DNA of 63,973 nt, the filler included, from Hausera hauseri (taxonomy: Eukaryota), in the NCBI GenBank assembly GCA_046269625.1. It is 10 parts of 10 records of this genome, joined end to end, with 100 filler letters (N's around TTAATTAATTAA, not from the genome) between each part and the next. Parts side by side here need not be neighbours in the genome. Positions count along the whole stretch, not along the records: positions 41,183 to 46,669 come from JBJURY010244627.1; 9 more parts are not named here. The stretch is one strand, 5' to 3'. This document shows positions 344-63,973 of this stretch, one piece after another (positions within the stretch are counted from its first letter, which is position 1; the number at the start of each line of letters is the position of its first letter). The notes beneath the pieces were generated by a model. It did no database searches and had not been told where the DNA came from. It saw only the letters and a list, made by a program, of their open reading frames with translations. A program made the position numbers and the translations under genes.

Positions 344-465
344 TGTAAGGAGAAATTCAATAAACAGCCAACAGAAAGTAAGAAGATTCAGAAAAGAAGG
401 AAAATAAGACACATACTGAGTGAAGGAGATAAATGTTATATAAACTTTTATAATAAATCTCAACA
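344..465 (+). repeat. Candidate short 3' LTR (TGT...ACA)
   Basis: Starts TGTAAGG right after the polypurine tract, contains AATAAA and ends CAACA. No second copy is available for confirmation. Confidence 0.4.
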
Positions 466-1654
466 GGTAGAAAATGGGAAGTCTGCACCACCCTCCAGGG
501 GTTTGTGCGAATCCATAAAATCAATATGGCACATGTGCCAATCGATAGTGCACATGGAGCACTATCGATCGATAGTGTGCTAGGCGACGGTGCTATTAGA
601 TACCGTTGCTAGGTACATTTTTGCACATTTCACAAATCGATAGCTGCACATTGTGCAATTGGTTGAATTGACCATGACAAACTGCTAATCGATAGTGCAC
701 GTCAAGGCGCATATCGATATGCACTGTGCAGGTGCGCAGCACATGTGCAAGTGTGCAAAAATCAATAACATCGGTTTCCCGATATTGCCAATATTGATGA
801 TTAACACATTGCATCGGGTGAAATCGATTTGAAACACAATGCACTATGTGAATGTGCATTTAGAAGTTAAATCGATCGAGTCGATTTCGAATAATATCGA
901 TCCAAAGTGCAACTGATGCTGACATCTCAGTTTTTTAGGCCCCAAAGAGTCAAAATTCGAAAAATGTTTAAGCGGTAACAGACAGGAAGTGTCACATTGT
1001 AACCTGGATCTTCCATCTCAGATTTGCGAAATTCGGTGAACGATTCGAATAAATATTGGTTTTCACCGAATAGTATCGATTATCTTCACATCCATAATTT
1101 TTTGAGAAATCTGAGAGCGCCAGTCGATTCCCCATGTCTTAATGCATCTGTATAGCACTTTTCAGATGTGTCGTACATTTGCAAGTGTGCTTTAATCATT
1201 AATAACGGTTTTCCAATAAAACTTATAAAGTTGATTTTAGCACACAAGAAAGTGGAAATTGAAAAATGTAAAAGTGTACACACAGAAACTAACATGTGCT
1301 GTATCCGATTATGACGTCAGATATTCGAAAAGAAGCTTAATTAAAAAACTATTTTTTTCGATCGAATTCGAATATTCGTATGGTACCATTGATTCCTCAT
1401 GTCCGAAAACCTTTGTACACCCAAAATTGGGTGTGCAAAGTGTTTGGAACAGTCTGAAAATGAATAAAACATTGAAAATTTCGATAATATTCGGTTAAGC
1501 ATGCATTATTGAAACAATCTGATGACTCCAATAGATTGTATGAAAACCTATTTGGCACCGATGTGCATTTAATTTATTTGATGGATTAAAACAAAGTGTT
1601 CTAGAATGTTCGAAAGTTCAAAATTTAAAAATCCATGAGGCAGTATGCGTTGAT

Positions 1655-4110
1655 ATGGACGTTTCATTATTTTCAAAATCACTTCCACGAATGGTGATAT
1701 TTTTATTTGTGCTCGTCAAATAATTGGCTTATTTTTAGATGTGCAATCTATATAAACAGTGCTTGGCTCAAATCCTTGAGCCTGGAAATTGCACAACGTT
1801 ATGCAGAAATACTTCAGCTATATATACAATAGGGCTGAGTATTATATATGCCCTACATGTGAGGAAGTGTGCCCGATCAAATATGAAAATTTTTACAATG
1901 CTCATACAATACCTGATTTCCTTCACCAAGTCGAAAATACAAATATTCAGTACCAATATGCCAATAATGACTTCCATACATAAGCAAAATCAAAGATGCA
2001 GTTCATACGTGTATTGCACATGTGCAATATACCACCCTCAGAACTGTCATAATGCCATGAAGAACTATTATGGATACAAATTCAATAGGATCCTCTATTA
2101 TATATGCCTAGGATGTGAGACTATGCGGTGCAGATTACATACAGTTCTATTATGATCACAAACATCATTTGAGTCACTTCGCATAAAAGTCAAAGAAGGC
2201 CATCTTTAATGAGCAACATAATTTTGATGCATCTGCTTCTCAGTATGATGCTTCGCAATATTCGGCCTCGTATTATGCTGCTAGATCTAGTGTAGCAACT
2301 GCGAAGCATATTAGAGAATTGAAACGCGCAGCCGCATCATGCGCAGCAGCATCAGGCGAAGCCACATCAGGCACGGTTACATCAGACGCACCGGCTCCAT
2401 CAAAAACCCAAGACAGCGGCCAGTTGATGCGGCAGCATTAAAGAAAAAATGCCGCAGATATGTTATTGAGGCGATTGGTCAAACAATCCTCCAAGATTTT
2501 CTCTTATACACAAAGGACGAGACACAGGGGATTCTTCAGGACAGGGCTGAGCTCAAAGCCATTACGATGAATATGAAACTGGAAGCCACATACATCAATG
2601 TTGATGGCGAAGAATCCAATTGGGCTTTCAAGACCAAAAATAGACCCATATTGCAAAACACCAATATAACAGAATGGATGCAAGAAGCACATAATAAGCT
2701 GATCCGTGAAACCGGGGAGAGCCAGCATAAGAGTGGATGGACTCTGGCAACCATCAAGAGATTGATTGTGTATGATCACAAGTACTCTCTCATGGGGACA
2801 GTTCATATATTCAGCTATCTGATTGGATCGCTAATAAAAAAGCATGTGTCAATGTCCATAATAACGACAACATGAGTTTCATGTATGACGTTCTATCAAA
2901 ACTCATAACGGATCAAAATCATGCTTCACGAGTTTGGCTATATAAGGATGTGCAACACAACTATGACTTCCAATGTATCAAGTTCCCTCCATTTATAGAT
3001 GAAGTTAAAAAATTTGGAAAAGTCAACAACATGTCCACCAATATCTTGGTACTGGATGAGGAGGACAAATTCTATCCCTTGCAGATATGCGATGCTGATT
3101 AGAACATCATAGGGATCTGCTGCTACTAAAAAATGGAGAAAAGAAACATTATGTTTGGATCAAAGACTTTGAGCGCCTAGTCAGATCACAAATTACGAAA
3201 CATCATGGAAAAATCATGGAAACATCATGTATTGAAACTTGCAGAGCACAATATGTACTGCAACAACAATTATTGCACAAGGCCAGAATTTCCATAGGAG
3301 GATTACACTGAATTCAAGGAATTCGAAAAGAAGATCAATGTCCCAATAATTATCTATTGCGACTTTGACACTATTCGGCGTTCAGTTCAGAGTTGCAGTC
3401 CCAGTCCCCAAGAACCTCCCTACATTTGACCTCGTCAAGAGGAAAGACGTATATCCCTATGATCATATAAAATCATGGGAAACACAAGATGAGACATCAT
3501 TGGCGGCCAAGAATTACTTTACAATATCCTCTCTGATTGCGATGTCAGTGATATGGACTACCAGCATGCTCTGAACATCTGACGTGGATTCCAATGACGA
3601 ACGTTAGGAGAATACAGCAATATATACCTCAAGGAGGATGAGCAACTTATGGTAAAGAGCCATGCATTGGATCCGGCTCATTTCTTTACAGCTCCAGAGA
3701 TGAGTTCGGTAGGTATGTTAAGATATACTGGTATTAGGCTGCAGATCACAAAGGATTACGACATGATCCTCATGATTGCGACAGACATTAGAGACTGAAT
3801 GTGCCAGGCCATTCACCGATATAGCGAGGCCGACAAGTATATAGTCCAGTATGATCCATCCAAGGAATCCTCATATATCATACCTGGGTGTCAACAACTT
3901 GTACGGATGGGCAATGAGCGCCCCATTGCCATATGAAGACTTCAAGTTGGTCGAGCATCCCGAAAACATCCATATACTGGACCTGGATTCCACTGGTGAT
4001 ACGGGATACATACTGGAAGTGGATATGGAATATCTGGCTTCTATCCACGCAAGGCATCAACATCTGTCTTTCCTCCCTGAGAGCAGGCCTCCGCCCCATG
4101 GGAAGCAGAG
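1655..4110 (+). pseudogene. Polinton/adintovirus-type protein-primed DNA polymerase B, decayed copy 1 (internally deleted, cut by contig end)
   Basis: Collinear with the copies at 41183-42553 and 55837-59864. Shows the tandem Cys/His domain, QRPVDAAALK, LSDWIANKKACVNV, KKHYVWIKDFERLVRSQ, IIYCDF, RKDVYPYD and YLGVNNLYGWAMS. Many frameshifts and stops. Confidence 0.85.
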
Positions 4111-4210: not shown

Positions 4211-6453
4211 ACTTAACTCCGCCTTCTGCACGACATTGTTTTCTGCGTTTTAATGAAACTTTGATCACTCTGCCCCATTATACTGCAGGGATTATTATTT
4301 ATTACAGTCATTTGAATACGGTTTTATCGTTGCAATTAATAAGATACTTAAATGAAAAAATTACCCCAAATAAATTTCTGTTGCACTAATTAGTAGTTTA
4401 TAATGTACTTACCAACATTTATAAAAATTACGGATGTTAAAAAAACAGAATGTAAGATATGACAAAAAGAAAACCACCCTATGGTTATTTAATGATACAC
4501 ACACACACACACGAGATTTTTGGGGCTATTATTAAGATATCTAAATTTTGTGTGTGTATGTGGCGGGGGGGGGTGATTGCAAATTTCCCATTTAAATAAG
4601 GTGCTGAACATTGTTATTGAAAATTTTGCAGACATTTTGTGGGGTTTTCAACCATTTTCACATTAAAATTCTATCAAATTTTTATTTTCTATGGAAACAC
4701 AAAATTTCATATCTCGTCAGAAAATGATTCAAATATTGGTAGAAATGACTTTCGAACAAAAAATTAGTTCAGAAATTCTATTGAGATTTTCATTATTTAC
4801 AATTTGTCTCTTATTTTGATTGTCACTGAACGATTTTAACGGAATTCTCATCTAGTGTGTGTATGTGTGTGTGTGTGTGTTAAGGAACGCAAAACGTTGC
4901 AAAATATTTATTGAAACTGAACCAGAATAAAATTCGAGTAAAGGAAATCAAAACTACATAGAAAAATCATTAATAATTTCTCATTTTTGTGAACAAAAAG
5001 ATCCAATGCACAACTGAATGAATTATCTCAAAAGCATTTACAAAAAAAGTTAAGACACCCCCCCCCCAAAAAAACCCTGTAAAAATTCAGATATCTCATT
5101 AGTGTAAAAAATAGCAATAGGACTCTTTTGGAGTAACATATTCAGTTATAAACCATATATACGTTTTTTAGCACAATAATGTTGCAGAATTTGTTCAAAG
5201 TTCTTTATTGCAACGTTCAAATACTTCGATCTTATTAAAATCTTCGTCAGATAATTGACATTTAAACATCAACAACACTAATACAACAAATTGTGTGTGC
5301 GAGATTTAAAAAGATAAGTTGACATTGCTTAATTCATATCGAAATATCTGCCCGACCGATGTTCTCTGACGAATATCTTAATAAAATCGAAATATTAGAA
5401 CGTGACATAAAGAACGTTAAACAAATTCTGCAACATTATTGTCCTCAAAAAGGACACAGCTTTATCAAAAACAACATCCAATCGAAATTGATTAAACAAT
5501 TGATTGCGTCAAAAACGTCTTCATTTCTGAGATTACCTTTCTATTGATAGTTGGGTATCTACATATACTTATACACTCGTTGCAAACTAATAACATACCT
5601 TGATGTTGGCACTGGTAATTTGAAAAGAAATTTACGAGAATTTACGGAAAATCATTTGCAAAATATTAAATTTTTATTAAAAAAGCAGTGGATTGACGGA
5701 TCCAAGACGTCCGGCAGATAAATCTGGTACTTCCTTGTCTGGAATAGCTGTATTTTTATTGGCCCTGAGCCGATGTGTATGGCGCCGTGTATGAATAGGC
5801 CGGAGTAGTTTCCGGGCAGATATTCGGGTTCGGCATTTGAGGACAGCGGCATAGTCTTGCCTTCGTGAAAATGTGAGGCTGGGAGTATCTGGAGGTCAGA
5901 GGAATAGGACTTCAAGGCTTCTTTGTTGGATCTAAATCTAACGCAAATATGGAATCCCGGGATCTAGTGACCAGGATAACCTGGACATCTTGATGCATTT
6001 TACCGAGCAATTTAAGGGGAAAGTATTTTACACAAATATACAAGCCCAAGCAGGAATGCACCGGTAACGAAGATTCGGCTGTGCCATGTTGTGGCGGACC
6101 ACAATCGAACACTGAATTCAGAACAGTCATCCTTATTTGTCAGAGTAGAAGCCCCCGTGGGCAGTAAAGCAGTAACAATGGCAGATAGGGGAGAATTATC
6201 TACCACCTGCTATTTAACCCCATATCTTATGGCTTATATGCAATCAGGATAAAAAGGAATAAAACTCCAAACAAACAAACAAACATGCATACTTGATTTT
6301 GAGTAGGAAACCATACATTCATGATTTTAAGGCGAGTATGATAACGAAAAAAATAAATAAATAAATGGGTATAAAAAGAATATGCAATCTAGTCTAAATT
6401 TTTAATTGAATGGTGGGTGAGGTGGTATACGTATTTATTCTTATCAGTCATAA

Positions 6454-9386
6454 TTAAGAAGTAATTGGGATGATATTGGTGCTGTTCGTATGGGGATCGG
6501 GGTTTTTAGTGGTTTGGTCTATTTTATCAAGTATATTAGTGGAATCTAATGGTTCTGATCTAGTTTTGTTGTGAGTGTTAAAGATAAAGTAACTGGCTTT
6601 TATGAATGCGGCCGACATACGCTCAGCGAGAGGCTTGACTTCGGTTAAGAGGAAACCTAGTTGTTTCAGGATGGAATTATTTTGAGGTAGCTAGCTTCCA
6701 ATGTTGCAGATGACAAATGTGGAGACATGTATGCTTTTATGGTTAAAGCCTAGTTGAGATCGGCACATTGTTTTTAAATGGGTGTATTTGGTGACATTAT
6801 CTTTGGAAACTTGTTGGACGGTTCTGAGACTGTCAAAGGACGATTTTACATCTATGATGAAAAGTTGACCACTTTTCTGTATGACGAAGTCTGGAATGTA
6901 TGTGATGTTACGCCAGGAGTGTTTTTTCTCTCTAACAACATTGAGGCCTTTGCTAGAATAGCTTCTGTGAGAACATCTAGGACTTTGTCGTGACGAGCAG
7001 TAATTAATAGTTCATGGTGTTTACATAAGTTAAGTACATGTGATTCTGATTCTTTATAATTATGGCATAGGCGGCAGTGGCGAGTTATGTATAGTTTATC
7101 CCTAAATACTCGGTGGTTTAGTGGGATTAAATTATTCCTGGCGACATAGGCAAATCTCCACGTATCGGGGTTGAGGATTATAGATGACATAACTAGGTTG
7201 GAGTAACTGTAGAGTGCTAGCATGTCGGCACATTTTCCTTGGACTTTTCTAAGTTGGGCTTTAGATTTGATCAGAGGAGTTAAGGTGATGGATTTGCCTT
7301 CGTGTGTGTCTGGAGTTTGGTTTATTGGTTTACGCCATTTTTCAAAGTAGTACGTGTGAATAAGTTTGTGAAGTTCTTTGCAGCAGTCATCAGCTTTGGT
7401 GGGAAGGATTTCGAAATCTTGGCCCCGTCTGTGGACCATGAGGATTACGTTGTCATTATCATAAAGTTCAAATTTGCACGTTATTTCTTTGCGACGGAGA
7501 TGGAGGACTGAGTCTCGATTTTTTTCCACCAAGTAGTGGTTGAGGCGGCGCTTATCCATCTCAAAGATTCGGAGAGTTCTAGATTGTTGTGGAATCGGTC
7601 ACGAGTGACTCGCAGGAGGTGGCATTTGGCAAAATATCTAATGTTGTGGGCGTCGCTATTAAGGAGTTGGTGAGCTTGGGCAATTCGTTGTATCGCATAT
7701 TCAGCCTTGATGAGCACTAGGCTCAGTGCGCCTCGGTTAGAACCCACAAAGGGGAAGTCTGTACCAACGTCGTTGGTTGGGGGTTTTAGGATTTTGTCTT
7801 TGAGAATGTGCATGAATTTGGCATCAAAGTTTAGGTAGGTGAAATTGCCTGATTTATGAGTGGTGTTACGTCCAAGTGATGTCCAGTTAATTACTCTGTT
7901 GCGGAGGTGGAATAGTGTGGTGGAGAAGATAAAATTTTTTGAACGTGTGGATTTTTTGGGCTGGGTGGAGAACAGAGTCGGTAATGGTGTTCCAGAGTTC
8001 AAGGTTGTGATGTAGTAGATCATCGAGTTGTTCTTTATTTTCGTGGCCAAATGGAACACCGAGGTATTTATAATAGTCATCACCTATTATTGTAGGTACT
8101 ATTTGTTCGTTGATAAGTAGGTCGGGCATATCATCCTTTTTATTTATGCTAAAGTAGCCACATTTGCTAGGATTGAATGTGAGATTGAGCTTAGATGCTA
8201 AGTGTACTATTTTATTGAGGAGTTTTTGAAGGTCAGTGTGAGATTTTGCTAGGTAGACTACATCGTCTGCGTAGGCCAAAGAGCGCAATGGTTTGTCGAA
8301 TGGTGATTGTTTGTTCAGCTTCGGTTAAGAGGAAGTTGGTGACGAGCGAGAAGAGTGTTATGGATAAGGGACAACCTTGTCTAACACCACGCTTGATGTC
8401 TAGAGCAGGTATATGAAGGTTACCATAGGTGTAGCTGGATTGGCAATTTTCGTAGAGTTGTTGAATGAGGAGTCTTGTATGTGGGTTTAGACCCATTTTT
8501 CTAGGGCGTGATTGATGAAGTGGTGTGGGATTGAAGGGAATGCTTCCTTAAGATCAACGAAGCACATATGTACATGTTCTTTGGGATATCGAACTACATG
8601 TTCTTTGAGCGCTATCAACAAAAAATTGTGTTCTGAGCATGCATTGTAGGCTCCGATGACTTTTTGATAGGAGTGGAAAAGGTCTCCAAAGGCTACCCAT
8701 TCCATAAGGCGGCTATGTATAATTTTGGTAAAGATACAGGAAGAGGTATCCAGGACTGCAATGGGACACCATGAGGATATTAGGTATGAATAGTCTTCTT
8801 TACCTGGTTTGGGTATCAGGGTAGTTCTGAATGATTTCTATTGTGCGGGGATGTCCAAGTTTATGAGGATATGGTTGAGTAACGTTTCCAGAGCAGTAAA
8901 ATTGGGGTCTAAGGTTTTCCAATGTGAGTATTCAATCTCGTTTTCACAAGGGCTGCTTTTTCGCATTTCTTGAAAGTCTTTTTGATATCGTCAATGGAGA
9001 TTTGTGAGTTGGTGAAGGTGTCTTTGGCAAGGGAGCATTACATAAAGTATAGTCGATGTCCGGAATGTTTGGAGAGGTTTTAGTATAGTGGCTAATCACC
9101 GCTTGTCTCGAGGGTAGTGAGATGTTGATGGACGGGTGTAAGATTTTATTGTAGACAATTTTTGGGGCCCTTTTGTACTCGAGTCTAAGGAGGAGATCAG
9201 ATTGCTCTGTTTGGCGAGTGTTTGTGATTGGGTATCTGATATGTTTTTCAGGTGTTGGGAAGAGTTCTTCCTTGGCTCTTGCTGCTTCCTTGAGAAAGTA
9301 TGTGGTCCATAGTCCTGATGTGTTTAAATATAATAAGGCTTTCTCAATAAGGGGATGAGTAGTTTTATCTTCTTTTTTCTTGAGTT
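6454..9386 (-). mobile_element. Non-LTR retrotransposon with RT and restriction-like endonuclease (NeSL/R2-group like), decayed and cut by contig end
   Basis: RT motifs EHNFLL, FVDLKEAFPSIPH, GVRQGCPLS, LAYADD, LTFNPSKC and YKYLGV. CCHC knuckle CRLC-x4-ESESHVLNLC, then RHDKVL and PDFVI...IIDVK (PD-D/ExK). Frameshifts present; stop at 6454. Confidence 0.9.
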
Positions 9387-9486: not shown

Positions 9487-11582
9487 CTTTTTGGGGTCAC
9501 AACCTACTGGTACTAAGATCCAATCGGCGATGGTATCTCGATCTAAATCGGGAATTTCGCCATCCGTTTGATACTTCTGATACTGTTTTTTCAACAAAGC
9601 TTTCATTTGTTTATCTACTGGCACTGTTAACTTGCCATTTCTTTTCGATTGGAACACTGGCGCAATATACTTTCTTATTTTATGGTTTTCCCATATGTAG
9701 GTGTTTTCGTATACTTCTCGAGCTGGTGTGGTCTTCACGAAAAACATTGCTTCTTTAATTTTCTGGTGACTATAATGCTCGGTAGTTATTATCATCTTTG
9801 GATAATCTTTAGTTGTTGTAAAATGTACATCTTGTTGGGAATTCCTTTTTCTGAGGATATTTATTTCTGAATAGTTGTTGAAATCCAATTTCTGTGTTAT
9901 TATGTTTATACGTCGATTGCTTGGGTTTTTCTGGGATTGTCATTTGGTTATTTGCGGACATCGTTGGGATTTCTCTTGTTATCTCTGAAGTTTCGGTTTC
10001 TTCGTTTGTTTTATCGGTTCGGTCTTTTTGGGCTTGGTTTGAGCTTGTTCCTTTATTTTTCTGTCTAAACATATAATCGTAGAGGGATATTTTTCTTTTA
10101 ATCGGGGAAATTTGTGTTTTAGCTTTCTGCTTTTTCGATGGAATTTTGGACACTTTAAATGTCTCGATTTCTTCTATTTCCTTGATTGTAGATTTCATTT
10201 CTGGAATTGGTTTCACGTGGGAACTATAACTGGTACTAGGCACTTTTGTGCACGATTGATCGGATTTTCGAATAGTTATTTTGATATTATCCTGTCCCAT
10301 GGGTTCCACGACTCTACACGGGGAATACGGACGATACTGCTTCCGATACTTTTTGTTCATAGTTTTCGGGTCGGATGTACTTCGTAAATTTTGTTCTGGA
10401 TTACTGGGTGTCCACTCATGGTCCCATTTTAGAGCTATGTAAATATCTTTCAAGTATTGAGTACGTTGACTTGCGGTTAACAGTTTGCTAATCTTAACAT
10501 ATTCGCTATTCATAGCGTCCATCATTAATTTGAAATAGGCATCCATAACTTTTGGTGCAGGGTAATTTCTCTCTCGCAGTAATTTTTTGCTCTACTAGGC
10601 GACTATTAGATATGATCCTATCTCACGCATTCCCACGATGCTTGAAATAGGTATTTCTAAGAGTTTGACAATGCTGTCGATGCGATATCCAGTTATAATC
10701 CATATAAACAATGTTCTATCTCGTCCTGAACAAATTTGATGTCTCAACCTCTCGATAGTGTCTCTTTACGAATTCCTGTCGTATCATAGTATGTCTCGAG
10801 AACGCGTTTTCGGACTGATAATTGTACAATATACTTCTGTTCCGTTCTTTTCTCGAACTGAAACTTCCATTGGGATCCTTTGTGCGTCATCTCCTTTGCC
10901 ACAATTGATTGCTATGATTCTGGTATTTCTGGCATCTTTCACTAGTCTATACGATTGTAAGAATGTGTCCAAATCCTTTTCTGACGGTTGTTGATAGAAT
11001 TTCAAAGGTGGCAGTTTGATATTGGGGTAATCGTCGTACGTTACTTCGAACATTAATTTTATGGGAAGGGCGGCTACTCTGAATTCTAATTCATAATGCT
11101 GTAAATCCTTGCTACTTAAGCTAAGAGTACTGAATCTGTATTGTCTTCCGTTGTTTGTGTTCCATTCCTGGTCTTTGAACCAATAGTATATCTCACCATC
11201 TGCCAGGTGGATATAAATTTGCCAGTTCTCGTGCGTGATCATCTGTTTGAGTGAATATGCTCGGGCATCTTTGTCTTCTCTCATGGCGTAAAGGTAAACA
11301 ATCCTATTTTCTTCCGTTATGCCCTTCAAAGTGTTAGGAATTTTACTGATCTGATCATACGTCACGAAGGTTTTCTCATGCAATTCGTTATGCATTTCTT
11401 TATATATTGATTTCGAATTTGGGAGGAGGATGGTAGCGTAATTCTGCAAGAACTCGTCAATACTAAGTCGGCGTTTTGGTGATTTATCGATACTACATCG
11501 TTCTCGTTCTTGAATAGATTGTGATCCGTCGATCCTAGGTCGTCTGGTATCCGTTTTCGTATTTCTTTCTTTACTCGTCAGT
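9487..11582 (-). pseudogene. Long unknown reading frame (about 700 codons, interrupted) downstream of Gypsy pol, with a DEDDh-exonuclease-like segment
   Basis: ORFs 11449-10784 and 10546-9809 share a frame that extends up to a TTATTTTTTAG acceptor at 11583. It continues after a frameshift into 9888-9487. Confidence 0.55.
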
Positions 11583-11699
11583 CTAAAAAATAAACAGTAA
11601 GGGTTAATCTTATGACAAAGTGTGGTTTTGAACCAAAACCGATTCTTTATTAGATGACAGAATAACCCGATCTGTAATTGTCAGGTTATTTTATCATAG

Positions 11700-13670
11700 A
11701 CGTATTCTTGGGGTTGTTGTAAATGTTTCTTTAACTGGTATCTTTTGGTATTACGTCTGCTTCAGCGAAATCCATGATTTGTTGGATAACTCGATCTTTC
11801 TTTTTTTCGTTTGAAATTCTGATTGCTCCGTCTGACGCTAAGGTTCGTTGTCGGTCTACTAACTCTTCGAGCTGATTCTTCTTCATTGTCATGATCGCAC
11901 TTGTTTTTGTCTTCAACCTGGACAATGCATCTGCATCCACGTGTTTTGCATCAGGTTTGTATTGGAACTCGATATTATATCTCGAGAACTCTTCAATCCA
12001 TCTATTCAACCTTCACGTAGGGTTGTTTGCTTGTACCTTTTAAGTTGTTACTGCCTTGTGATCGATAACTATTATTATCTTCTGTCCATATACGTAAACG
12101 TTAAAATGCCTTAAGGTTTCTTTTACTGCTAACTTTTCTAGTTTTGTCACTGAATACTTTTTCTATGCTTTCTTCAGAGAGCGTCCTCCATAAGCGATTG
12201 GGTGTTCTAGTTCTTCGTCTTTGCGTTTCTGTGCCAATTCACATCCGATTTCTTCTTTACTTGCGTCTGTTTTAATAATAAACGGTAAGTTAAAGTCAGG
12301 ATATCTTAGTACCTGTTCGCTAGTTGGTATCTTCATTTTGTCGAACGCCTTTTGTTCAACATTGGTCCATCTCTATTTCGTTCCATTTTTTAGTAATCGG
12401 TATAACGGTGCATTAATTTTTGAGTTATCCGGTACATAAGTGGCATAATATCCACATAGACCTAACCAATGTATCAGTTCCTTTTGGTTCTGAGGTTCCA
12501 TACAGTCTGAAATTTTATTCAGTAATGATTTGTCAGGCCTGGATCCTCATTCGCCAACTATATGGCCAAGATAGGACATGACGTTTTGAGCCAATCTACA
12601 TTTCTTTGGGTTCAGTTTTAACCCGGCTTGTTCTGATCTCACAAGAGTGCCTTTGATATCCTTCAGATGCTTCTTTTCGTCTTTTGGTGCAATCATTGCG
12701 TCATCTAAGTACGCAAATGCATGTTCAAGTCCCATTAACATTTTATTCATCATCCTGGTAAATATGGCTGGGCCGGTGGTAATTCCAAATGGCATAACGT
12801 TAAATTCGTATAATCCATCATGAATTTTAAACGCCGTTTTATAACGATTTTCATCCTCAATTTCTACTTGCTAATATATGGATTGTAAATCCAGAGTGGT
12901 GAACCATTTTGCTCCGAAGAGCCTATTCAGAGCCTCTTTCGCAGATGGTAAGGGAAAAGAATCTTTCATCATAAGAGTATTTAACGCTTTATAATCGATA
13001 CAAAATCGATGTTTCGTGGTACCATTCTTTTTTACTATAAGAATAGGTAAATACCATGATCTGAAACCTGGTCGGATTATATCCGCTTTGAGCGTGGCGG
13101 CGGATACCATTTTGGAATTTTCTGCTCTTCGAGATCGATTTCGTGGTTGGAACCGGGCTTTTTCTTAAGCGGTATAGTTAATTTTAATGCATTTGCTTGG
13201 CCAATGTCTTCTTCGTGTTTCGCAGTGATTGATTTATATCTACATAATAATTCGCAAAATTCACAATAATCTTCTGGTGAAAATTTCGTATCGACGTGCG
13301 GTGGAAATTCAGCGTATTTATACGAATTCTCTTCAACCGTTATTGCTGAAACTTTGTAGGTATGCCCCAGAGTAGTGTTAGCATGTAGTCTTTCTGGAAT
13401 TTGAGCATTATTCACTATTCTTACGGGTATTCGATCAGATGCTACTCGGGTCAGTATGTTGCTCAATATTATACTTGGATTTAGCGTTTCTTTCGGCTCA
13501 AAGTATACTGGAAAATTATCGTCGACAGATTTGCGCGAATATCAACAATTCCATTCTAGACGGAATGTTTTCGTCCACCGGAATGCATACTTCTCTGGGT
13601 TATCTTTTTTTATTAATCTTAGTTCCTTTTATCGGTCTGAGCTCGATTAACGACTGTTGAGATTCCTTAA
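11700..13670 (-). mobile_element. Ty3/Gypsy pol remnant (RT and RNase H; integrase absent)
   Basis: RFCIDYKALN, FTTLDLQS, MPFGITTGPAIF, AYLDD, SYLGH, KTDAS, HPIAYGGR and KHVDADALSR. Same family as 48437-51201. Confidence 0.9.
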
Positions 13671-14256
13671 ACAAACATAAACTGTTGACAATATTCATTC
13701 ATTTGACCAATTCGACATTGACAAATTTTGATTGATAGCTGACAATAAATATATTTTGTTTTCTTTCCTCTATATCTTGTTGAACCCCTTCTGATGGATG
13801 TCATTAATGAACCTGACTAATATGTGTTTATTGTGATCCAGGCAGCTAGTACAAGGAAAAGTTTGAAATAAAATCACAGATAACCTTAGAAAATACAAAA
13901 CCTTAGAAAATACAAATTTGTAAATAGTAAAAGTTATAGATAATCTCGGAATGCATTAGCATTTGTGGAATTCATANNNNNNNNNNNNNNNNNNNNNNNN
14001 NNNNNNNNNNNNNNNNNNNNTTAATTAATTAANNNNNNNNNNNNNNNNNNNNNNNNNNNNNNNNNNNNNNNNNNNNGGCAGAGGGCTCCATAATTGCTCT
14101 TTGAAGACGGCATCTGTTGTACCAAAAAGCGGTACTTTTCCGATTAACCACCCTAGAGAAGATGGTGGCTACACTTTCCGGCATTCTGAGATGTTCACAA
14201 ACGGGGATTTCGATGGTGAGGCACATTTTCAAGGGACTGCAGTCCTATCTCTGTCT

Positions 14257-26131: not shown

Positions 26132-27742
26132 GGTGGAGTGAATCTGTAGTCAGTTGTTTGGGAACAGAAGAAATGTTTTCGGTCAGCCAGACAATAAATT
26201 TCCATCTGTCTTAATGTCCGCTGGTACATCTCAATGTGGTGAATCCAATCAGACAAATATTGTGGACAATCCCACTGAGTCAAGCTCCCAGTTTCTTTAA
26301 GATCAATCCCATCTCGCCAGCTAAGTCCAGGAACAAAAGTCGGCCCATGACCCTCAGCAGAACCACTTGCAGACCGAGTCTCAGCTTGCTCAGTGCAAAA
26401 GTCTGAGTGCTGAAAGAACAGAAATCCTTCATGTTGGTCAGGCAGCCAGGAAAGGGCCTGAATAGCCACCAACACTGTTTGCAGAACACCAGAAGACCAC
26501 CAAGTCAATCTGAGCAGAACAGAGGTCCCACCTTTGATGTGTCCTCTCATGGAAAAAATTGCTCCAAAAATGTATTAAAAGACCAGGTAACCAAATCCAT
26601 AAAATAGAAATAAAAAATAAAAAAAAATGTTGGTTCAAATAATATAAAACTTTACTGATCCCACAATGGGAAATTTGCATATTACTGCAGCTCAACACAG
26701 TAATTCTATGTGCAACATGATATTTATTTATCTTTGAATATTTTCTTTTGTTTTACCACCGGAATTACTCAGAACAATAATGAAGTGAGGATTGTGATGG
26801 TTGGGAAGACTGGAATTGGAAAAAGTGCCTCTGGAAACACCATTCTGGGAAACGAGATTTCATTCCAAGTGTAGCTCTAAGTCTTTAACTCAGAAATGTT
26901 CTAAAGTCAGTGCAGAGATAGAAGGTCAGAAGGTTTCTGTCATCGACACACCAGGTCTGTTTGACACCAGCTCTGACCACCAGAAAACATCTGAAGATCT
27001 GAGTCAGTGCATCTACTTCGCTGCTCCTGGACCCCACATCTTCCTGGTGGTCATCTCAGTGGGCAGATTCACCCAGGAGGAGAAGGAGACGGTGAAGAAG
27101 ATTCAAGAACTGTTTGGAGAAGCTGCTGACAAATACAGCATGGTTCTCTTTACTCGAGGAGATGATCTTGAAGAAACAATTGAAGAATTCATTGATGAAA
27201 ACCAAGATATAAAAGACCTTGTTGAGCGATGTAACGGTCAGTATCATGTCTTCAACAACAAGCTGAGAGATAAGAAACCTCAAGTCCCTGAGCTGCTGAA
27301 GAAGATCAGACATGTTGTTCAGAAGAATGGAGGAAGCCACTACACCAATGACATGTTTCAGGAGGCTGAGAGAGACATCAGAGAGAAGCAGGAGCTCATC
27401 CTGAAGGAGAGAGAGGAGGAAATACGCAAAGAGAAAGAAGAAATTGAAAAAAAAGTTGCGGAAAAGTACGAAGAAAAGATAGAGAAAGTCAACAAGCAAA
27501 TCCAGGCTGAAAGAGAGAAGTGGAAGGAGACGGAAGAAAAGAGGACAAGAGAAAGTATGGAGAGAGAACAGAAGCTGAAGGATGAAAGAGATTTCCAAAT
27601 CAAACAGAAAGATGCAGAAGTCAAAGCTGAAATAGCCAGGGTCGATTATCTTCAAAGGGAACTAGCCAGAGCGCAAGCTGAACGTAAGCCAAAGAACTGG
27701 TTTCAGAAATTTTGCAATGCAATTTCAGTTCTATTCCGGTGA
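24468..27742 (+). pseudogene. GTPase IMAP family (AIG1) gene, frameshifted. Exon 1 24468-24510; exon 2 about 26762-27742
   Basis: [23 protein letters not shown] (P-loop) is out of frame with VIDTPGLFD, PGPHIFLVV, FTRGD and YHVFNN. Frameshift at about 26850-26858. Exon 1 is inferred from an ATG and a GTAAGT donor. Confidence 0.85.
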
Positions 27743-41182: not shown

Positions 41183-42553
41183 GATCTGACTAGACCCTTA
41201 AAGTTCTTTATCCAAACATAATGTTTCTTTTTTCCATCATCTACTAGGAGCAGATCTTTATGATTTTCCAATTCATTATCATATATTTGCAAGGGATACC
41301 ATTTGTCCTCCTCATCCAATCCAAAGAATTAGGTTGATACGTTGTTTATTTGACTGAACTACTTAGTTTCATCTAAGGATGGAAGAAGTGTGATACATTG
41401 GAAAGCATAGTTGTGCTGCACATCCTTATATTGCCAAATTCATGAAGCATTATGTTGATCAGGCACGAGATTTGATAGAATGACATACATGAAACACATG
41501 TTGTTATAATTATGGACATTGATGCATGCTTTTTTATTAGCGATCCAATCAGGGAGTTTAATATATGGACTACCTCGCAATGAGGAGAATCTGTGCAAAT
41601 ACACAAGCAATCTCTTGATGGTTGCCGGAGTCCATCCGCTCTTCTTACTCTAGCTCTCATCAGTTTTGCGGATCAACTTTGCATGCTCTTAATGCAGCCA
41701 TTCTACTATATTGGAGGCTTAAAAATGGATCTATTTCTGGTCTTGAAGGCCCTTTTGGACTATTTGCCATCAAAATTGACGTATGTGGCGTCAAGTTTCA
41801 TATTAACCTTAATTACCTTGAGCTCAGTATGTTGTCCTGGAGAATTCTTACTGTTTCTTTCTCTGTGTACTCCAGGAAGGCTTTGATGGTTGTTTGCCCA
41901 ATTACGTCAATGACATATTTGCCGCATTTCCTCTTTAATGCTGCAGCATCAACTGGCCTTTGTCTTTGACTTTTTGATGGAGCCGTTACGCCTGATACAT
42001 CTGATGCGCGTTTTAGTTCTGCATCTGGCTGCAATGTAGGCTATGGTACTGAAGGCTGTGCAACTGGCTTATGTTCACTAAAGATGATTTTCGTTGACTC
42101 TGATGCGAAGTCAGTCAAATGATGTTTGTCATCTTTATAAAACTGTATGTATTCTCCACCACATACAGCCTGACATCCTGGGCAGATATAATAGATGATC
42201 CTATTGAATTTGTGTCCATAATAGCTCCTCATGGTACTGTAAAAATTCTGAGGGTTGTGTATTGCACATGTGCAATACACATATAAACTGCATCTTTGAT
42301 TTTCCTTTGGCATGAAAGTCGTTATCGGCATATTGGTACTGAATATTTCTTTTTTCGCCTTGGTGAAGGAAATCAAGTGCTTTTTATGGACATTGTAAAA
42401 GTCTTCATAATTGGTTTGGCACACTACCTCACATGTAAGGCATATATAATACTGAACCCTGTTGTATAGATGGCTAAAGTACTTTTTCATAATACTGTGG
42501 CAATTTTCAGGCTCATGGATTTGAGCCAAGCATTCTCTGTAAAGTTTGCACAT
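41183..42553 (-). pseudogene. pPolB family copy 2, N-terminal half (tandem Cys/His domain to OTU-like region), cut by contig end
   Basis: 170-aa two-repeat ORF, one stop, then same-frame SKSQRQRPVDAAALK. Further on, GSPYIKLPDWIANKKACINVHNYNNMCFMY and KKHYVWIKNFKGLVR. Confidence 0.85.
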
Positions 42554-43900
42554 CTAAAAATGAACAATTTCCGTACCATACGGAAATCCGAATAGGATCG
42601 GTACGGAGCTTGTCGTTTCGACGGACGTAAGAGATCGACGTAGGACTTTCATATTCGCTTGACTCTCACGGAGTTAAGCGGAATCTCATAGAATTGTTGG
42701 GGAAGGATTTTCCCTCAGCATTTGTATCGGCGGGATGAAATTTGTTCGGTGAGAGCAGTGGGATGTGATATCTCAACTCTATGGTAGTCCTGTTCTTGTG
42801 ATCGATTCACCTGGGCGGTGACCGTCGCCTCCGGAAGTCTTCGGTTTCTGCTGAGCTGATGCTGCTTTTCGTACGGCGTCGATTATTTGCTGCATGATGT
42901 GATTTTGAAAATGTGTTGATTCTTTTGTTTTTGTAAATTTAAACAATTGATATTTTATTACTATTAATTATGCCAAAACCAATTTGTATTTTTTAATTGA
43001 GTGAATCGGTTATTTAAGTGTTTTAATATTCTTGAATAGGACGAATCCGTGCTTTAATTGTAACGTAAAACCTTAAATAATGGATGACATATTTGCGAGG
43101 ATATAATCGAGAACTGAAATCCTAAAATTAAATTTAAAGCATTTTTAAATTTTAAAATTTGACAATAAATTTAAAATGAAAAATATACAAAAATTGATGT
43201 ATATCTCAAGAATTGAACGAAATATACTTCATATGTAATTTCCACTAATTACTAAATATTCAATATTGCAATCGACTGTACTAAATCAGAATTATTGTTA
43301 TTATTAACAATACTGACTATCAACAAAATTTCATTTTGTAACAATTTTAATCGGCAAAAATCATTCGTCTATAATTGCAGATTTATTGATTGATTTCTTT
43401 AATGTCAAATTAAATTGGATTTAGTTTTTTTTTACATTGCAATGTTTCAATTTTCATTTTACTTGCAATAAGTCCATTGATTACTTTTGTCGCCAGCGTT
43501 AAGTACAATAAAGACGAAAAGGCAAATTATCTAACATCAGTCCATTCAGCAAAGTTTTGTGTGTGATAAATTGATTTCTCGTTGAAAGACGTTGTCATAA
43601 TTGATCATAGGACGAACGTTTTTGCTTATCGTTTAAATGTCATCGAAAGAAAAACTGCAGTTTGTCCTTGTGTTAAATACGTTCGGTAGAAAACTAAATG
43701 TCAAATCAGTGCCTGGTCAGCGCATCTGCACACAATATGTTTTGGGTTTTTTGTACACGTGTTGTACCGTATAAAATAGCCTGCATTTATCAAGTAGTTC
43801 AATCTCTATTTCTTGTTGTTTAAACAGGTTAACTATTTGACTATAGTATATCTTATTGCTGATATTTGCAGTCTCTTTCGATTAGAAACTTTGAATCTTC

Positions 43901-46382
43901 ATGGATCCGAATGATCCCGATTTTTTGTACTTGGGTGTTGATAGAAAAGCCCTGCTGAAAGAATTCGGTACCGAGCAGTTTGACAGTAGAAAAAACGTAT
44001 GGATACCAGATGAGAAAGAGGGCTTCATAAAAGCCGTGATTGAAGAAACATCTGGAGATAAAGTAACGGTAAAAACGGATAAAGGAGAAGTAATTATTGA
44101 TGTTATTCAAACAGTTTAAATTGGTGTTATCTAGGCAAAGACGGTAAAAGTCGATGATACTCAACAAATGAATCCACCGAAATTTATGATGATTGAGGAT
44201 ATGGCAAATTTAACTTTTCTTAACGATGCTAGTGTTTACGATAACTTGAAAACGCGTTACTTGAAAAGCTTGATTTATGTAATATTTTTAACGATAGAAT
44301 TCACGTGACTTTAATGGTGTTTCCAGACTTACTCCGGATTGTTCTGTGTAACGATAAATCCATACAAAAGGTTTCCGATTTACACATCGAGTGTAGTCCA
44401 GAAATATAAGGGTAAAAGGAGAGGTGAAATGCCACCGCATATATTTTCAGTATCTGACAATGCATATTCGAACATGCTAACGGGTTAAATTATTCGTAAG
44501 AGTTTATTTAATATCGATTATTCAGAACATGAAAATCAGTCAATTCTGATTACGTAAGATGGGATAAAGTTGTTATAAGATTTTTAATGTTTGTAATGCA
44601 GTGGTGAAAGTGGAGCTGGAAAGACAGAAAACACGAAGAAAGTCATAACATACTTTGCCCAAGTTGCTGCAGCGAGTTCAAAGAAAGACGATGACGATGC
44701 TTCAAAGAAAAAGGGAACACTAGAAGACCAAATCGTACAAGCTAATCCTGTACTGGAAGCTTACGGCAACGCAAAAACAACAAGAAATAACAATTCATCT
44801 CGCTTCGTAGGTTGAATTTGAAGGCTTTTGCAAACGATGGCGTAGCAAGGAAGGCCAATTATTGGACATAAAACCAGGCGCGTCAAAGTGTTCTTTTCTC
44901 GGTTAAAAATGTTCTAAAAGTCACCTATGGGCATGTACAATATGAAAAAGGAGGTGGAAGGAATGGGTAAGAGGGTACGGGAGGTATGCCATTATCAAAC
45001 GCACACACTGCGGTTTGCTACGCTACTGATTGCAAAACAAAAGAATACAAACAAAAAAAAAACTAAAATATTTTTCCCAGGGAAAATTTATTCGAATTCA
45101 TTTCGGAACTAGTGGAAAGATCGCCGGAGCAGATATCGAATTTTGTAACATTTTGATTGTAAAATGTTCGAAATTTGAATAAATTATTTTAGATCTACTG
45201 GAAAAGTCACGAGTCATTTCTCAGCAGAAAGGAGAACGAAACTACCACATATTTTATCAATTACTCTCCGATGGAGGAAAATCCTTTCATGGTAAAAAGA
45301 GGTGAATAAAAAAATGGAATGAAATTGTTATAGAGAAATTGCTGGTAACACCTGATCCTGGTCTGTACTCAAATATTAACCAAGGAGAATTGACAATTGA
45401 CGGCGTTGATGACGTAGAAGAAATGAATATCACCAATGTATTTATTGTATTAATGATTTTTGAATATCGACTCTGTAGGATGCCTTCAACGTTCTGGGAT
45501 TTACAGAGGAAGAAAAAATGAGTTTGTTTAAATGTACCGCTTCAATACTCAATATGGGAGAAATGAAATTCAAACAACGGCCAAGAGAAGAACAAGCTGA
45601 AGCTGATGGAACAACTGAAGTTGAAAAGGTTGCGTTCCTGTTGGGTGTAAATTCCAAAGACCTCTTAACGTCAATTCTAAAACCGAAAGTAAAAGTGGGA
45701 AATGAATATGTTACTAAAGGACAGAGCAAAGATCAAGTATTAATCTTTTACAGACCATTTAAAACATTTCGTTTGATATTAAGGTTTTGTATTCAGTAGG
45801 GGCATTGTCAAAATCTTTATACAACAGAATGTTTGCTTGGTTGGTTCAAAGAGTCAACAAAACGTTGGATACGAAAACCAAACGACAATTTTTCATTGGT
45901 GTCTTGGATATTGCCGGATTTGAAATTTTCGACGTAAAATTATTGAAAAAAAAAAGAACATAAAATTGTACTTTGTCATAATTTGTAGTTTAACGGTTTT
46001 GAACAAATTTGCATTAACTACACGAATGAACGGTTACAACAATTCTTTAATCATCACATGTTTGTTCTGGAACAAGAAGAATACAAAAAGGAACAAATCG
46101 ATTGGGAATTTATCGATTTCGGTATGGACTTGGCTGCTTGTATTGAGCTGATTGAAAAGGTTGATCCAATAGATAAATGACATTATTAATAAAATATTCC
46201 AGCCCATGGGTATTCTGTCCATTCTTGAAGAAGAGTGCATGTTCCCTAAGGCAACAGATCAAACATTCAAGTCGAAATTGTACGACAACCATCTTGGAAA
46301 GAGTCCGAATTTTAGTAAGCCAAAACCGCCGAAACCGGGACAAGCTGAAGCTCATTTCGAATTGCACCATTATGCTGGAACG
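43901..46382 (+). CDS. Mhc: Muscle myosin II heavy chain, 5' part (12 exons: 43901-44089, 44135-44278, 44327-44483, 44526-44553, 44602-44806, 45081-45144, 45193-45291, 45334-45437, 45479-45736, 45784-45933, 45989-46159, 46203-46382), cut by contig end
   Basis: MNPPKF...[63 protein letters not shown] and [10 protein letters not shown]. All introns are GT-AG. Confidence 0.95.
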
Positions 46383-48436
46383 GTATATTTTTGAAACATC
46401 AGACTGCATATGAAAGTCAATATTATTGAACATAAGAATGTGAAATAAATGATATTTCAGCATAAGTTAGTAGTCCGTTAGTAGTTTATGAAGTTATGGC
46501 AAATGCTAAACTGCTCAGCAAAATATTAGTTCTGCTATTCGCGAGGTAGCGGAACTGTTCCCACCGCTGAACTGTAATAAAATGCTTAGAGAACTGGACT
46601 GTTGCTGTGTGTAAAGGGGTGGTTATGTTTTAATTTAATAAAAATGGAAAACCCTTAGCTCTGACAGATNNNNNNNNNNNNNNNNNNNNNNNNNNNNNNN
46701 NNNNNNNNNNNNNTTAATTAATTAANNNNNNNNNNNNNNNNNNNNNNNNNNNNNNNNNNNNNNNNNNNNATTTAATATTTATGACTGGTTAAGATGGAAT
46801 CCGTTACAAATTTGCAACTTCAGCATGGAACCCCTTTTTGATTTGTGATAAATAATCAACATGATGAGTACCATGTTACTTCTTTAGTTAGTTACATCCA
46901 TTTGCTGTGAAAGGGTTAATAAAACACGAGAAAATTCTAGAAAAGGTGCCATATAATGAATTGTATATACTACATAATTGTACAGTACAAAAGTTTGCAC
47001 ATCCAGATACCTAATTTCTAGTCATTCTTACTCGAGTAAAAGTGAAGAGTATTTCTGCTGTTCCCAAAAAATGGATAATTGTGCAACACAACAAAATGTT
47101 GCATTAAAAAAAATCAATGGTCATAAATAATATCTTCTTCTCTTTTCATAGTAAAAGTGTTACGAAAACCTACAGAGAAATTAAAACCGTTTCCACCCAT
47201 ATGTAATAGTTTTCTTCAATAATTATTCTATCATACTAAACCCGAAGCAGGTATTAGGCTATTGCAACACATTAGGCAATTGCTAGCTCCCATGTTGAGA
47301 GAGAAATGAATAAAACGCATCATTTTATTGTCAGTAGTAATTCGACATATAGTGGGAGTACATAGGGTGCGCGTATATCCATATCTTCTAATTTGTTATC
47401 ACGGATAGTGGTGTATTTGGGTATAATTTATTTTTCTTATTTTCGATAAAATTCAGTAATTTTCTTCGTGTTCAAAAACAGAATATTTCAACACTTGCCA
47501 TGAGACAAATTTCTTGTATTTCTTAATTAAAACATCGAAACATGCTTTGTAAATAGTTTGCGAATTTAAACAAAAATTAACTGAAATTAAAATCGGAAAG
47601 CGTTTTGAAATTGTATGCCATTAGTATGTCGTGGGGCATAACGATTTCATTAACACAGTTGTACAAATAATTTGAGCTACTTTATCAATTTAGATACTGC
47701 GTTAAGGATATATCTTTGCATTGATTTTTTGAAAATTCAAATTATTTCAAATATTTATTTCAAACGTGGTTAAATCAGCTATTTATGGACGAACGTGCTT
47801 TATAAAGTTGTTTCGCACAACTTCAAGGAACTTCAGTTATTTAGCTACTGTGACTAACAGAAAGAGTGACTATTAATAGACTACCTTTATTGTTACGCAC
47901 AGTATTATTACCTGTTCCAAATTTAGAGTCTGATTAAAAGCAAGGCAGTCAATTGACTTAAGTATGAAGCCGGAAACAATTGACTGCTTGGTAATTGACA
48001 TACGAATTGGAGATAATCTATCTAGTACCATTATTGAGTTATAGACGAGCTATGCTTTCCGAAGGTGCTTGTAAATATGTTTATGTTCTTGTTGGGTAAA
48101 CTGCTATTGGAGACAGTTTCACTATTGAATGTTGATATAATCGAATTACACCCCTGAACATATTTTGAGATTCGACAAAATTATCGATTTTCTTTTTAGA
48201 AAAGCGTATCTTGATAATTATTGTAAAGTTTAGATGAATTTTCGTACTAATGTAAAAATTCAAAGTTCCCATTCACAGCATTACCAAAGTGAAAATCGAT
48301 ATGCATACAAATAATTGTCGGTCACAGCAATTTTTGTAGAAAGATGTATTTTAACAGTGTTTTCACATGAAACAAAGAAAAAACCGCCTATATTATTTGG
48401 GTGTTGTTTTTGAAATTTATATATATTTGAATAATT

Positions 48437-60334: not shown

Positions 60335-62216
60335 TCCTTATTATAACTGAAACAAACATTTCTAAATTCAATTTCCCCGTTTCGGACAAACAATAGCGGA
60401 TCATCCGGGTCATCTCGAATATCCTGCGGAATTTCAAGCAAATCAAACATATTCTCCATGTCAATGAAATTCTGCTGCATCATTCTACAGACCCAGTTAC
60501 TTGCCAACTACATCAAACCAACCTGTAGTAAGTACCGAAGAAATTCAACGGAGTATTTAACTGGATGATATACGTGCAATAAAGAACAAAATCCCCAACT
60601 GTAAATTCGATACCCTCCACAACGTAATACGCACAAAGCAACGCTCCACCAAAAAACCCGAAGTTTATGCTGAGATTCTGAACGAAATTCAATAGATTCA
60701 ATGTTGTCTGTGACAACCAATCAGCCTGTTGATATTCTACAATTGCATCTCGATATCGTTTGACTTCATACTCTTCAGCACCGTAATATTTCACCGTTTC
60801 AAAATTCAACAACGAATCGACAGCCTTTGCGCTCTTAGCATTGTCTAATAGATTCATGTTTCGTCGATATTTACTACGCCATTCCGTAATCCATACCGTA
60901 CCACCCAAATACACGACCATCGTTACAAAAACGATCAATGCAAAATACACATTAAACGCCGCCAGAAAATATATAATGCCAATCAGAATATCGACCAACG
61001 TCGGTGCAATATTGAACAGGAAATAGTTCAATAAATTCTGCATGGAATCCGTACCGCGATCCATGATTCGTAACACTTCACCGGTCTTTTTTGATAGATG
61101 CCAACTCAACGACAAACCATGGAGTTGAGCAAACAACTGAACTGCAATACGCCGGGCACTATACTGCTGAACACGAATCCACAATTGAGTCCGAATACCA
61201 TTCAGAATACCGGTACTGCCGAGTCCGGTACCTTGGAAAATCCGCAACATACCAAAAATCAAAATCAAATCCCAACGGAGTTTCAGTCCGTTGGATTCGT
61301 TGAATAATTTCGCACTGGGATTGACGAAATATTCCATCAGCACACGATGAGAATAACCCGAATATTGTGAGTGGGTCTTGTTAAATACTGGTGTGAGACT
61401 GTCAACAACGTATTTGTACGTCAATGGTATGTATAGATTCAACACTCGACCGACAATAAGAATTCCAATGCAAATAAAAACGTAAAATTGTAGGACATAG
61501 CTATCTTTTGGCCACGATGCGTCGACAACCAAAAGTAATTCCCGTTTAATTCGGGTCCATCGACTATTAGATTCTGTCGATCTAATAACATCCAAATCAT
61601 CGGTATTAATTGACGAATACCGATGAAATATATCAGATGGTCGATGCAATCCTGGTGCATTAAAGCCCAACAAAATATTGAAAAAGACAAAAAAATACCG
61701 CAACACCCACAAAGAAAACTCTACTTTATCAGAATAATTAGCAAATCTCCACCAATATTGCCCATCGACACTGTTCAAACTAACCAGCGGCAAATTCTCA
61801 CTGGCAAATGATAACAACCAAAATCCATGTAATGCAATTCCATGTCGTTGGGATAACTCATATCGACTTTCAAAATGTACCAAATAAGTAACAAATAAAT
61901 ATCCCACTGTCGATAGAATAAAATTGACCACCATATAACCGTAAATTGTTTTGCTGTACAACAATCTTCCTTGTAAAATCAACCGTAATGTCGATAAAAC
62001 TGGCATTAGTAACAAAAATGTCATCTGAATTCCATAGAAAATTGATTTGGATCTTCGTTGGGTATTTATACATTTCGATAAAATTAATTTTGGAATTCCA
62101 AATAGAAATATGAAACCAAAACAAATCGATTGAGATATGGTTTGAGTAAAACACTGGTGCAATCCATTGGAAATCCAGGGATTTGATAAGGAAATATTTA
62201 ATGGGCAATAATACAT
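60335..62216 (-). CDS. ABCB6: ABCB6/HMT1-type ABC half-transporter. Exon 1 62216-60523; exon 2 60484-60335. NBD lies beyond the contig end
   Basis: N-terminal TMD0 (CF...GFNAPGL), LHGLSLSWHLSKKTGEVLRIMDRGT, AVDSLLNFETVKYYGAE, PLNFFGTYYR|MMQQNFIDMENMFDLL and GEIEFRNVCFSY. 38-nt GT-AG intron. Confidence 0.92.
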
Positions 62217-63973
62217 TTCCTTTAAATGTCAATTTTATATATTGAATGATTTCATAAAATTTGTTGAAAAGCAGTTGATCAATCAAAATTAAATCAAAAA
62301 ATGTACAAAGAAGTCTACAGGTAAAGTGAATATATTGATTAACTAAAACAAATCAGAACTCAGAAAAGGTATAAATTAGTCCTTTAAACTATGGTTAATT
62401 GAATATGGAAAACACTCATTGAATGTAACACCTTTCAAAAGCGACACTACATATCCCAAAATCTGATACATTAAGTTAGTAATATAATATGATACACCAT
62501 TTGTTAATAGACAGTAGATATATTGTAACCCATTTGTTTGTTTATAAGTTATCAAGTATAACACTAAATATTCACTAAATAAAATTTCACAAATTATTAC
62601 TGAATCCATTCTTTATTGTCGTTTGATACAGTTCATTCATTATCTATTTCATCAAAATCAACATATTTATAAAAATCTAGTCTGAAAAGGTATTGATGTA
62701 CAAAGTAATTGCTACTGTTACACAAATTTTAAACAAAACTTGATTAGTGAATTACCATAATGACTAAATGTGCAATGCATAAATATGGAAAAGGAATTTT
62801 GTAAATATAGATAAATAATAAAACATCAATATTCTTTAGTTTCTGCTGTTCATTTGCACTGTTTATTACGTGTAAATATCAGAAATTACTAAAAGAAATT
62901 TATGATGAGAGAATAAAGAATAAATAAAGTACAAAATTGGATAGTCATTTATTTCAAGCCGCAATGTTATTCGTAACAATTGTAAAATCTGGTAAGATTA
63001 GCTAAGAAGCTTTGAAATGTAACTCATTAAGACCATTATAACAGAATATAATATTTGATTCTGTTAAATGCTCCCAGCCGATTCAGAAGCAATTGGTAAG
63101 CAAGTCTTTTAAAACCATGACCCAAGGATTAAAACATTACATTCTATTACAATGGCCTTATTTGATTTTATTCAAACTTTCATACTTGGAACAACTATAC
63201 ATCCTCTTCCTTAACCCGGCCAGACTTTTCAGTTTTTATAAATAATGTTGTTTGAAGTAAATATTTATCCTATTTTGATTTTATTTATTCTTAATCCTTT
63301 CAGCATAATTTTTTATTAATTTATGACAATTTACCCATAATAAACAATGCAAATAATCAGCAAAACTAAACAAAATTAATGTTTTATTATTCACCTACGC
63401 TTAAAAAATTCCTTCGCCATATTCAAACATAGCATATTTAGCCAGGCACATTGAGAGATAGGACGAGGTCCGGGGAAAAACTATTAAAGAGTCCCCAGAA
63501 TGTGATATTGGAATTTTACTTAATGCCGTTTGCATGTACTATAAATTACGGTACAGAGGTGGGGGAAGGGGGAAGCTTCCCTGGGCCCTATAGTCTCAAA
63601 GGGGCCTCGTTGTCCAAGAAAATAAAATAATTTTACCACTTAGAACTGTTCATGGGCCCAATAAGAACTAGTAATATTGATTTAGTCTCATTAGATTTTA
63701 TCTCTATTTAATTTTTTTTACCGTAACTGTTTAAAATTAATTTATAGCTCTAATGAAGCAGTACCACAGGTGTAATTTAGTACTAATAAGAAATGTACCC
63801 ACAAAATTTTGGTCCTGGTCATCTGTAAAATTTTATTTTTCATTCAAATAATTATGAGATTTTTGCAGATCCATATGTTTTGTGTCGATCAGAAGGGGAA
63901 AAGATAAGAACAATAATTAGAACCCTGTGTTTCCTGTTGGTGTGTTCACATGTGCTGCAGTCTGCAACCCAGA

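Follow-up and report, generated by a model that had tools for sequence, protein, structure and literature searches.

A predicted two-zinc Cys/His module at the front of the Polinton protein-primed polymerase polyprotein in Hausera hauseri

The protein-primed polymerase (pPolB) of Polinton/Maverick (adintovirus) elements is described, in the available text of the source papers, as a polyprotein with the order terminal protein (TP), OTU-like protease (vOTU), exonuclease (EXO), and PALM (10.1101/2024.03.18.585575; PMC8502044). We analyzed a 63,973-nucleotide (nt) stretch of the Hausera hauseri assembly GCA_046269625.1, here called the window, which consists of 10 joined parts; all window coordinates count along the joined stretch. 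It holds copies of a Polinton family with motifs in the same order in one frame, which shares with the known elements a Ser-Gly motif in a TP-like domain, candidate vOTU-like Cys/His motifs, exonuclease and polymerase motifs, a neighbouring capsid gene and candidate protease gene, and the inverted ends starting with AG, and differs from the published pPolB by one to three extra Cys/His units before the TP and by predicted introns. The word "zinc" is absent from the main text of 10.1101/2024.03.18.585575, and in the available text of PMC8502044 it refers to Oncoid proteins, not to PolB. An endonuclease inside the polymerase is also found in the Polintons of nematodes and oomycetes, whose pPolB2 has an HNH insert; this is a likeness by domain only, and the main text of that paper contains neither "N-terminal" nor "C2H2" (10.1101/2023.08.22.554363). 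Adenovirus pTP, according to the available text of PMC4246237, is likewise a priming protein linked to the genome that has additional sequence at its N-terminus; the adenain protease trims it at sites of G-G type, of which one has Gln at P4. It is a separate gene, unlike the polyprotein here, and is likened by position and trimming only. No description of the domain was found in full-text searches of the accessible literature, and one may exist elsewhere.

The module was noticed on the minus strand at 42553-42041, where a 170-amino-acid (aa) frame is composed of two related Cys/His units with 42% identity over 69 aa (E 1e-20), as the initial annotation had read it. The units repeat every 86 aa and have a core of ~62 aa, in place of the repeat length of about 72 aa given there. 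Unit 1 (42365..42550, minus strand) keeps 8/8 predicted zinc ligands, and unit 2 (42107..42292, minus strand) has lost ligands 18 and 56, leaving 6/8. On the same strand follow a basic tail with an Ala/Ser/Pro/Gln-rich linker (41940..42106, with a TAG at 42043-42041), the length of which differs between copies, a TP-like domain with the SGW motif (41590..41940), assigned by motif and position only and interrupted by stops and by frameshifts at ~41815 and ~41720, and a vOTU-like domain (41183..41560) in which Cys and His motifs are candidates for the catalytic residues, cut short by the contig end at 41183. The annotation had described the pair as in frame with the polymerase apart from one stop, which does not apply to this copy: beyond the TAG its frame extends no further than the first portion of the TP-like domain and then meets the two frameshifts. 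The pair occurs again, as claimed, at 1739-2210 (plus strand) and 59817-59350 (minus strand), frameshifted in both cases.

A profile of 43 units, searched against 1.84 billion representative proteins with a cut-off of E<=0.001, matched 36 outside proteins, and 0/10 of the homologues looked up had an informative name. Searches for known families and structures gave no match. Eight ligands are conserved (C2, C8, H13, C18, C38, C41, H56, and H59); the "VC" cysteine of the annotated pattern is kept in 0/36 outside homologues. C38, C41, and H56 are each found in 36/36 of these and H59 in 35/36; the counts for the N-terminal half are 24/25 for C2, 26/28 for C8, 29/30 for H13, and 28/31 for C18. Every unit having the first Cys keeps all eight ligands (24/24), with a spacing of 2/14/2 in 23/24. 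Of 38 proteins counted, 32 have one unit, five have two, and one has three, and 9/38 module proteins reach an SGW-like motif. The module charge is near neutral, and the start of the finger helix is acidic and aromatic. Pfam gave no match over the cut-off for zf-C2H2 (best E 0.59) nor, for the 43 units and the outside homologues, for BED, RING, THAP, B-box, ZZ, or PHD (PHD best E 0.05), in agreement with the earlier view that no standard C2H2, BED, RING, or THAP finger is present. Classical C2H2 fingers have the spacing C-x2-4-C-x12-H-x3-5-H, and the module, with its 2/14/2 spacing and no Pfam match over the cut-off, does not fit this type.

The AlphaFold2 model of unit 1 at 42553-42041 has a pLDDT of 88 and is predicted to fold into a helix, a beta-meander, and a helix, with the second half in a C2H2-like beta-beta-alpha layout. 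Two zinc sites per unit are predicted from the model, one CCHC and one C2H2-like, and the eight conserved Cys/His together with the confident model suggest that the module is probably metal-binding. Foldseek returned weak rows only, all DNA-binding C2H2 proteins, with a TM-score of 0.29 over 35 columns. Classical C2H2 fingers (Kaiso, CTCF) resemble the module in having, after a C-x2-C, a helix that bears two His, and differ in the x14 spacing, the H-x2-H, and this TM-score. The top three VIA rows are the SERRATE/ARS2 zinc-finger domain (PDB 3ax1, 7qy5, and 6f7j; 51 residues aligned), which, like the modelled unit, has a helix, then beta-strands, then a C2H2-like helix. The module is a real, conserved, and uncatalogued domain, predicted to be of two-zinc type, in the leader of a known polyprotein.

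The module is fused in frame to the front of the Polinton pPolB polyprotein, the proof coming from other copies than the one at 42553-42041. At locus L081, an uninterrupted 1271-codon frame runs from unit 2 to the polymerase end and carries the SGW motif at 270, a candidate vOTU Cys at 318 and His at 409, an EndoVII domain (Pfam Endonuclease_7, E 2e-7), and all exonuclease and polymerase motifs of a protein-primed PolB. The order of its TP and vOTU motifs is the one given in the available text of 10.1101/2024.03.18.585575. The L081 frame has no direct DNA_pol_B_2 match, and a piece from the window gave DNA_pol_B_2 at E 5e-4; the L081 PolB aligns at 33% over 1066 aa to a PolB in locus L179, which matches DNA_pol_B_2 with E 4e-35. 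A stop-free frame of 448 aa at locus L031 leads from unit 1 to the vOTU-like domain, and two units stand at the front of the complete PolB of the outside protein P0045 (1286 aa), their first half preceding the called start. Among 46 loci examined, 40 hold both unit 2 and the TP anchor, which are in frame in 24/40 (p 5e-4) and stop-free in between in 6 of these 24.

Pairwise dN/dS lies at 0.26-0.49 among stop-free top-scoring copies, a range biased low because the set was chosen in this way, and purifying selection on the module is shown. Unit 1 and unit 2 differ by a dN of 0.53 and a dS of ~2, with 109/462 pairs saturated, and the duplication is therefore old. In a TP-vOTU tree of 16 rows (L149 lacks the region and is not included), a 100/97 split has module-bearers on either side, interspersed with module-less calls, so the module is either old or swapped; clustering of the module label on this tree is not significant (49/500 shuffles). 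Unit 1 is preceded by an AG in 35/41 loci, and 27/41 have an upstream GTRAG donor, at 42-49 nt in 26/27 and mostly directly 3' of an ATG. The second window copy has such a predicted start codon exon (1691-1693) with a 45-nt phase-0 intron (1691..1738, plus strand), the third has a predicted start codon and an intron with a mutated acceptor before its Cys/His pair, in which unit 2 is frameshifted (59350..59864, minus strand), and a remnant of the predicted acceptor remains at 42554..42563 (minus strand). The ATG-intron-unit arrangement is the same in a second subfamily (L249-L256, L258, and L260), which, where the contig reaches, has a second phase-0 intron between the units, also after an ATG; the window family is without it and has both units and PolB on one exon. 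It is predicted, from the DNA only, that an ATG exon is spliced onto the module via phase-0 introns, and we infer that the module is a symmetric exon and that the pair likely arose by copying of intron plus exon.

The initial annotation suggested that the module is released by the OTU-like protease. In the available text of the published model, the vOTU cut falls between TP and vOTU (10.1101/2024.03.18.585575), which runs counter to this suggestion; the module would therefore stay on the DNA-linked TP, which favours a docking role at the genome ends. We give an even chance to the reading that the module is a docking device at the element's DNA ends. The vOTU would cut behind the TP, and the duplicated two-zinc module, kept on the genome-linked TP, would dock single-stranded nucleic acid or a protein of the host or the element, and would not act as a classical base-reading finger. 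The avidity of one to three units could then target the TP-capped genome for nuclear retention or to a replication or integration site, a possible parallel being the extra part of adenovirus pTP, which is thought to influence localization.

Several points besides the low bias of dN/dS weigh against this reading or against the fusion on which it builds. The TP and vOTU assignments are based on motifs and position, and 16/40 loci are out of frame, which we attribute to decay. Close PolB relatives (P0005-P0008) and the first L179 PolB are without a called module, suggesting that it may be dispensable, though upstream exons were possibly missed; the P0006 PolB, read by eye, carries another finger in the same slot. 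The structural likenesses fall under any trusted threshold, and zinc binding is predicted from conservation and the model. A basic residue behind the unit in 35/35 homologues fits nucleic-acid binding, and in relatives bearing a protease motif the module may be cut off.

Alternatively, in line with the idea of the initial annotation, the tandem module could be a sequence-specific binder of palindromic motifs in the terminal repeat, recruiting the polymerase to the origin, which appears rather unlikely to us: the conserved basic tail, the C2H2-like beta-beta-alpha second half, and the weak Foldseek rows of DNA-binding C2H2 proteins speak for it, but the near-neutral charge, the acidic and aromatic helix start, and the x14/x2 spacing argue against classical base reading, and the TM-score is 0.29 over 35 columns. 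The left terminal region of the second copy (465..900, plus strand) does contain an ATCGAT-rich palindromic stretch (521-900), with 8 ATCGAT among 18 six-mer palindromes, compared with a mean of 6.4 and a maximum of 16 in 500 shuffles, and its ATCGAT resembles DRE, the motif to which DREF binds in insects. It is similarly improbable, in our judgment, that the module is a leader cut off by the adenain-type protease of the element, being then a free decoy for host factors or present only before virion maturation, like the portion of pTP that the adenovirus protease (AVP) removes. The sole candidate sites for protease release behind the module are adenain-like QxGG/QxGxG motifs, found in 5/20 linkers with 0.67 expected; P0004, the window-family copy tested, and 14 other linkers have none, and four hits are in one Gly-rich linker, where half of the shuffles match too. 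The element appears to encode an adenain-like protease, and AVP cuts pTP and accepts Gln at P4 (available text of PMC4246237), making self-trimming plausible in some relatives.

Among the outside homologues, many have been called as proteins of 70-140 aa that stop soon behind the unit, and one subfamily has, directly behind unit 1, an intron with an in-frame stop. This would fit a module whose main product is short and separate, arising through alternative splicing or retained introns, the fusion being secondary. Such short calls would, however, be expected from prokaryote-style gene calling on spliced genes, and the window family has both units and PolB on one exon, so we consider this very unlikely. 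A repeat without a role, being captured host DNA or a Cys/His-rich remnant that arose by chance, might be read from the 3/3 broken window copies and the missing database name, but the invariant ligands in 36 outside homologues, the dN/dS below 0.5, and the confident fold leave this reading hardly any probability, and the conservation pattern refutes it.

The module belongs to an element that is exceptionally abundant in this assembly (869 Mb in 909,086 contigs). In place of the three copies first annotated, the module pair gives 10,959 first-look candidates, the PolB C-terminus 21,869, the RING gene 4,393, a capsid piece 4,192, and a minor-capsid-like piece 1,395; only ~150 candidates were scored per search, all of them significant (150/150 at E<1e-77 for the module pair), and these counts are not copy numbers. 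The genome likely contains thousands of mostly decayed Polinton copies. Vertebrate Mavericks have intronless core genes and a median of 8 copies, the highest named being 287 (available text of PMC8097293), unlike the H. hauseri family with its predicted phase-0 introns and 1,395 to 21,869 first-look candidates per gene.

Left ends start with AGTAG ~1.5-2 kb upstream of the module (L044, L046, L049, and L050), and the inverted end closes the internally deleted elements L084 and L123 close behind PolB, giving terminal inverted repeats starting with AG; many of the copies carry such internal deletions. The fetched contigs are short, none spans an element from end to end, and no 6-bp target-site duplication was found in them. 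Behind PolB, on its 3' side, lies a RING gene (zf-RING_2, E 2.5e-9), in one subfamily as a small gene at L081:175-465 (minus strand), and the third window copy is without RING there. Convergent genes after PolB encode a presumed exonuclease-like open reading frame (ORF), an adenain-like protease, and a 442-aa capsid protein. The 442-aa ORF (L176) has no direct Pfam or PDB match, and aligns to a PF21738-positive major capsid protein (MCP) at 21% over 390 aa (E 1.7e-6), which identifies a double jelly-roll MCP, linked to PolB/RING in L098, L176, and L178. The protease matches Peptidase_C5 with E 0.019, under the cut-off, and with E 2e-8 the corresponding ORF of a canonical Polinton in L149, which we take to be a protease. 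No integrase homologue was found in the short contigs fetched except next to a more distant MCP subfamily (L186), and no packaging ATPase was found in them. The minor-capsid-like gene occurs as two or three tandem paralogues in L216, L222, and L223. L149 and L100 (G000:C45553) represent a second, canonical Polinton, with an identified MCP, presumed integrase-, ATPase-, and protease-like ORFs, and an 865-aa ORF, presumably a repeat/collagen-like fibre. The distant Polinton at L179:141-9398 has capsid, protease, and a PolB for which no module was called; downstream lies a second, broken PolB with a module remnant ahead of it.

Within the window, the second copy continues from its frameshifted Cys/His pair (1739..2213, plus strand) to a broken and internally deleted pPolB (2411..4105, plus strand), and the third through linker, TP-like, vOTU-like, exonuclease with EndoVII-HNH insert, and polymerase regions with stops and frameshifts (55837..59349, minus strand). 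The copy at 42553-42041 joins an unrelated repeat upstream of ~42563 and has thereby lost its start exon and left end; this repeat (42563-43000) has 40 genome matches at 67-92%, its similarity breaks off precisely where it meets the truncated Polinton copy, and 0/11 examined loci run on into the module. Head to head with this copy lie host muscle myosin heavy chain exons (43895-46669, plus strand), the top PDB matches being striated myosin entries, presumably of molluscan type, and the host is accordingly a probable spiralian invertebrate. A 22.8-kb contig (18245-41082) carries a GIMAP/AIG1 gene at 26798-27742, presumably teleost-like, a Tc1 transposase, and a Spin-doc hAT transposase, and the assembly may mix a fish host and an invertebrate parasite. 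A single open frame of 571 codons at 60513-62228 (minus strand) encodes an ABCB6-like transporter (MTABC_N, ABC_membrane). Decayed retroelements at 6400-9386, 9487-13976, and 46770-51201 comprise one element of non-LTR type (LTR, long terminal repeat), which carries zf-RVT, and a pair of related LTR-type elements that share 73% identity over 1.35 kb, one of them with an rve integrase.

The polyprotein is of a known kind, and its N-terminal module is the new part; the first annotation did not include the outside family, the introns predicted here, or the very high number of copies. The probably spliced core genes and the unusually large expansion are both unlike vertebrate Mavericks. It is conceivable, though decidedly improbable, that a new two-zinc fold on a symmetric phase-0 exon, duplicated by Polintons and swapped between distant polymerase lineages, makes the TP host-targeting (chromatin or germ line) and partly explains the thousands of copies. 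The available text of the literature searched gives no function for the stretch that precedes the TP in Polinton polymerases, and a small, well-folding, and widespread domain in this position would offer a handle on the nuclear placement of protein-capped genomes.
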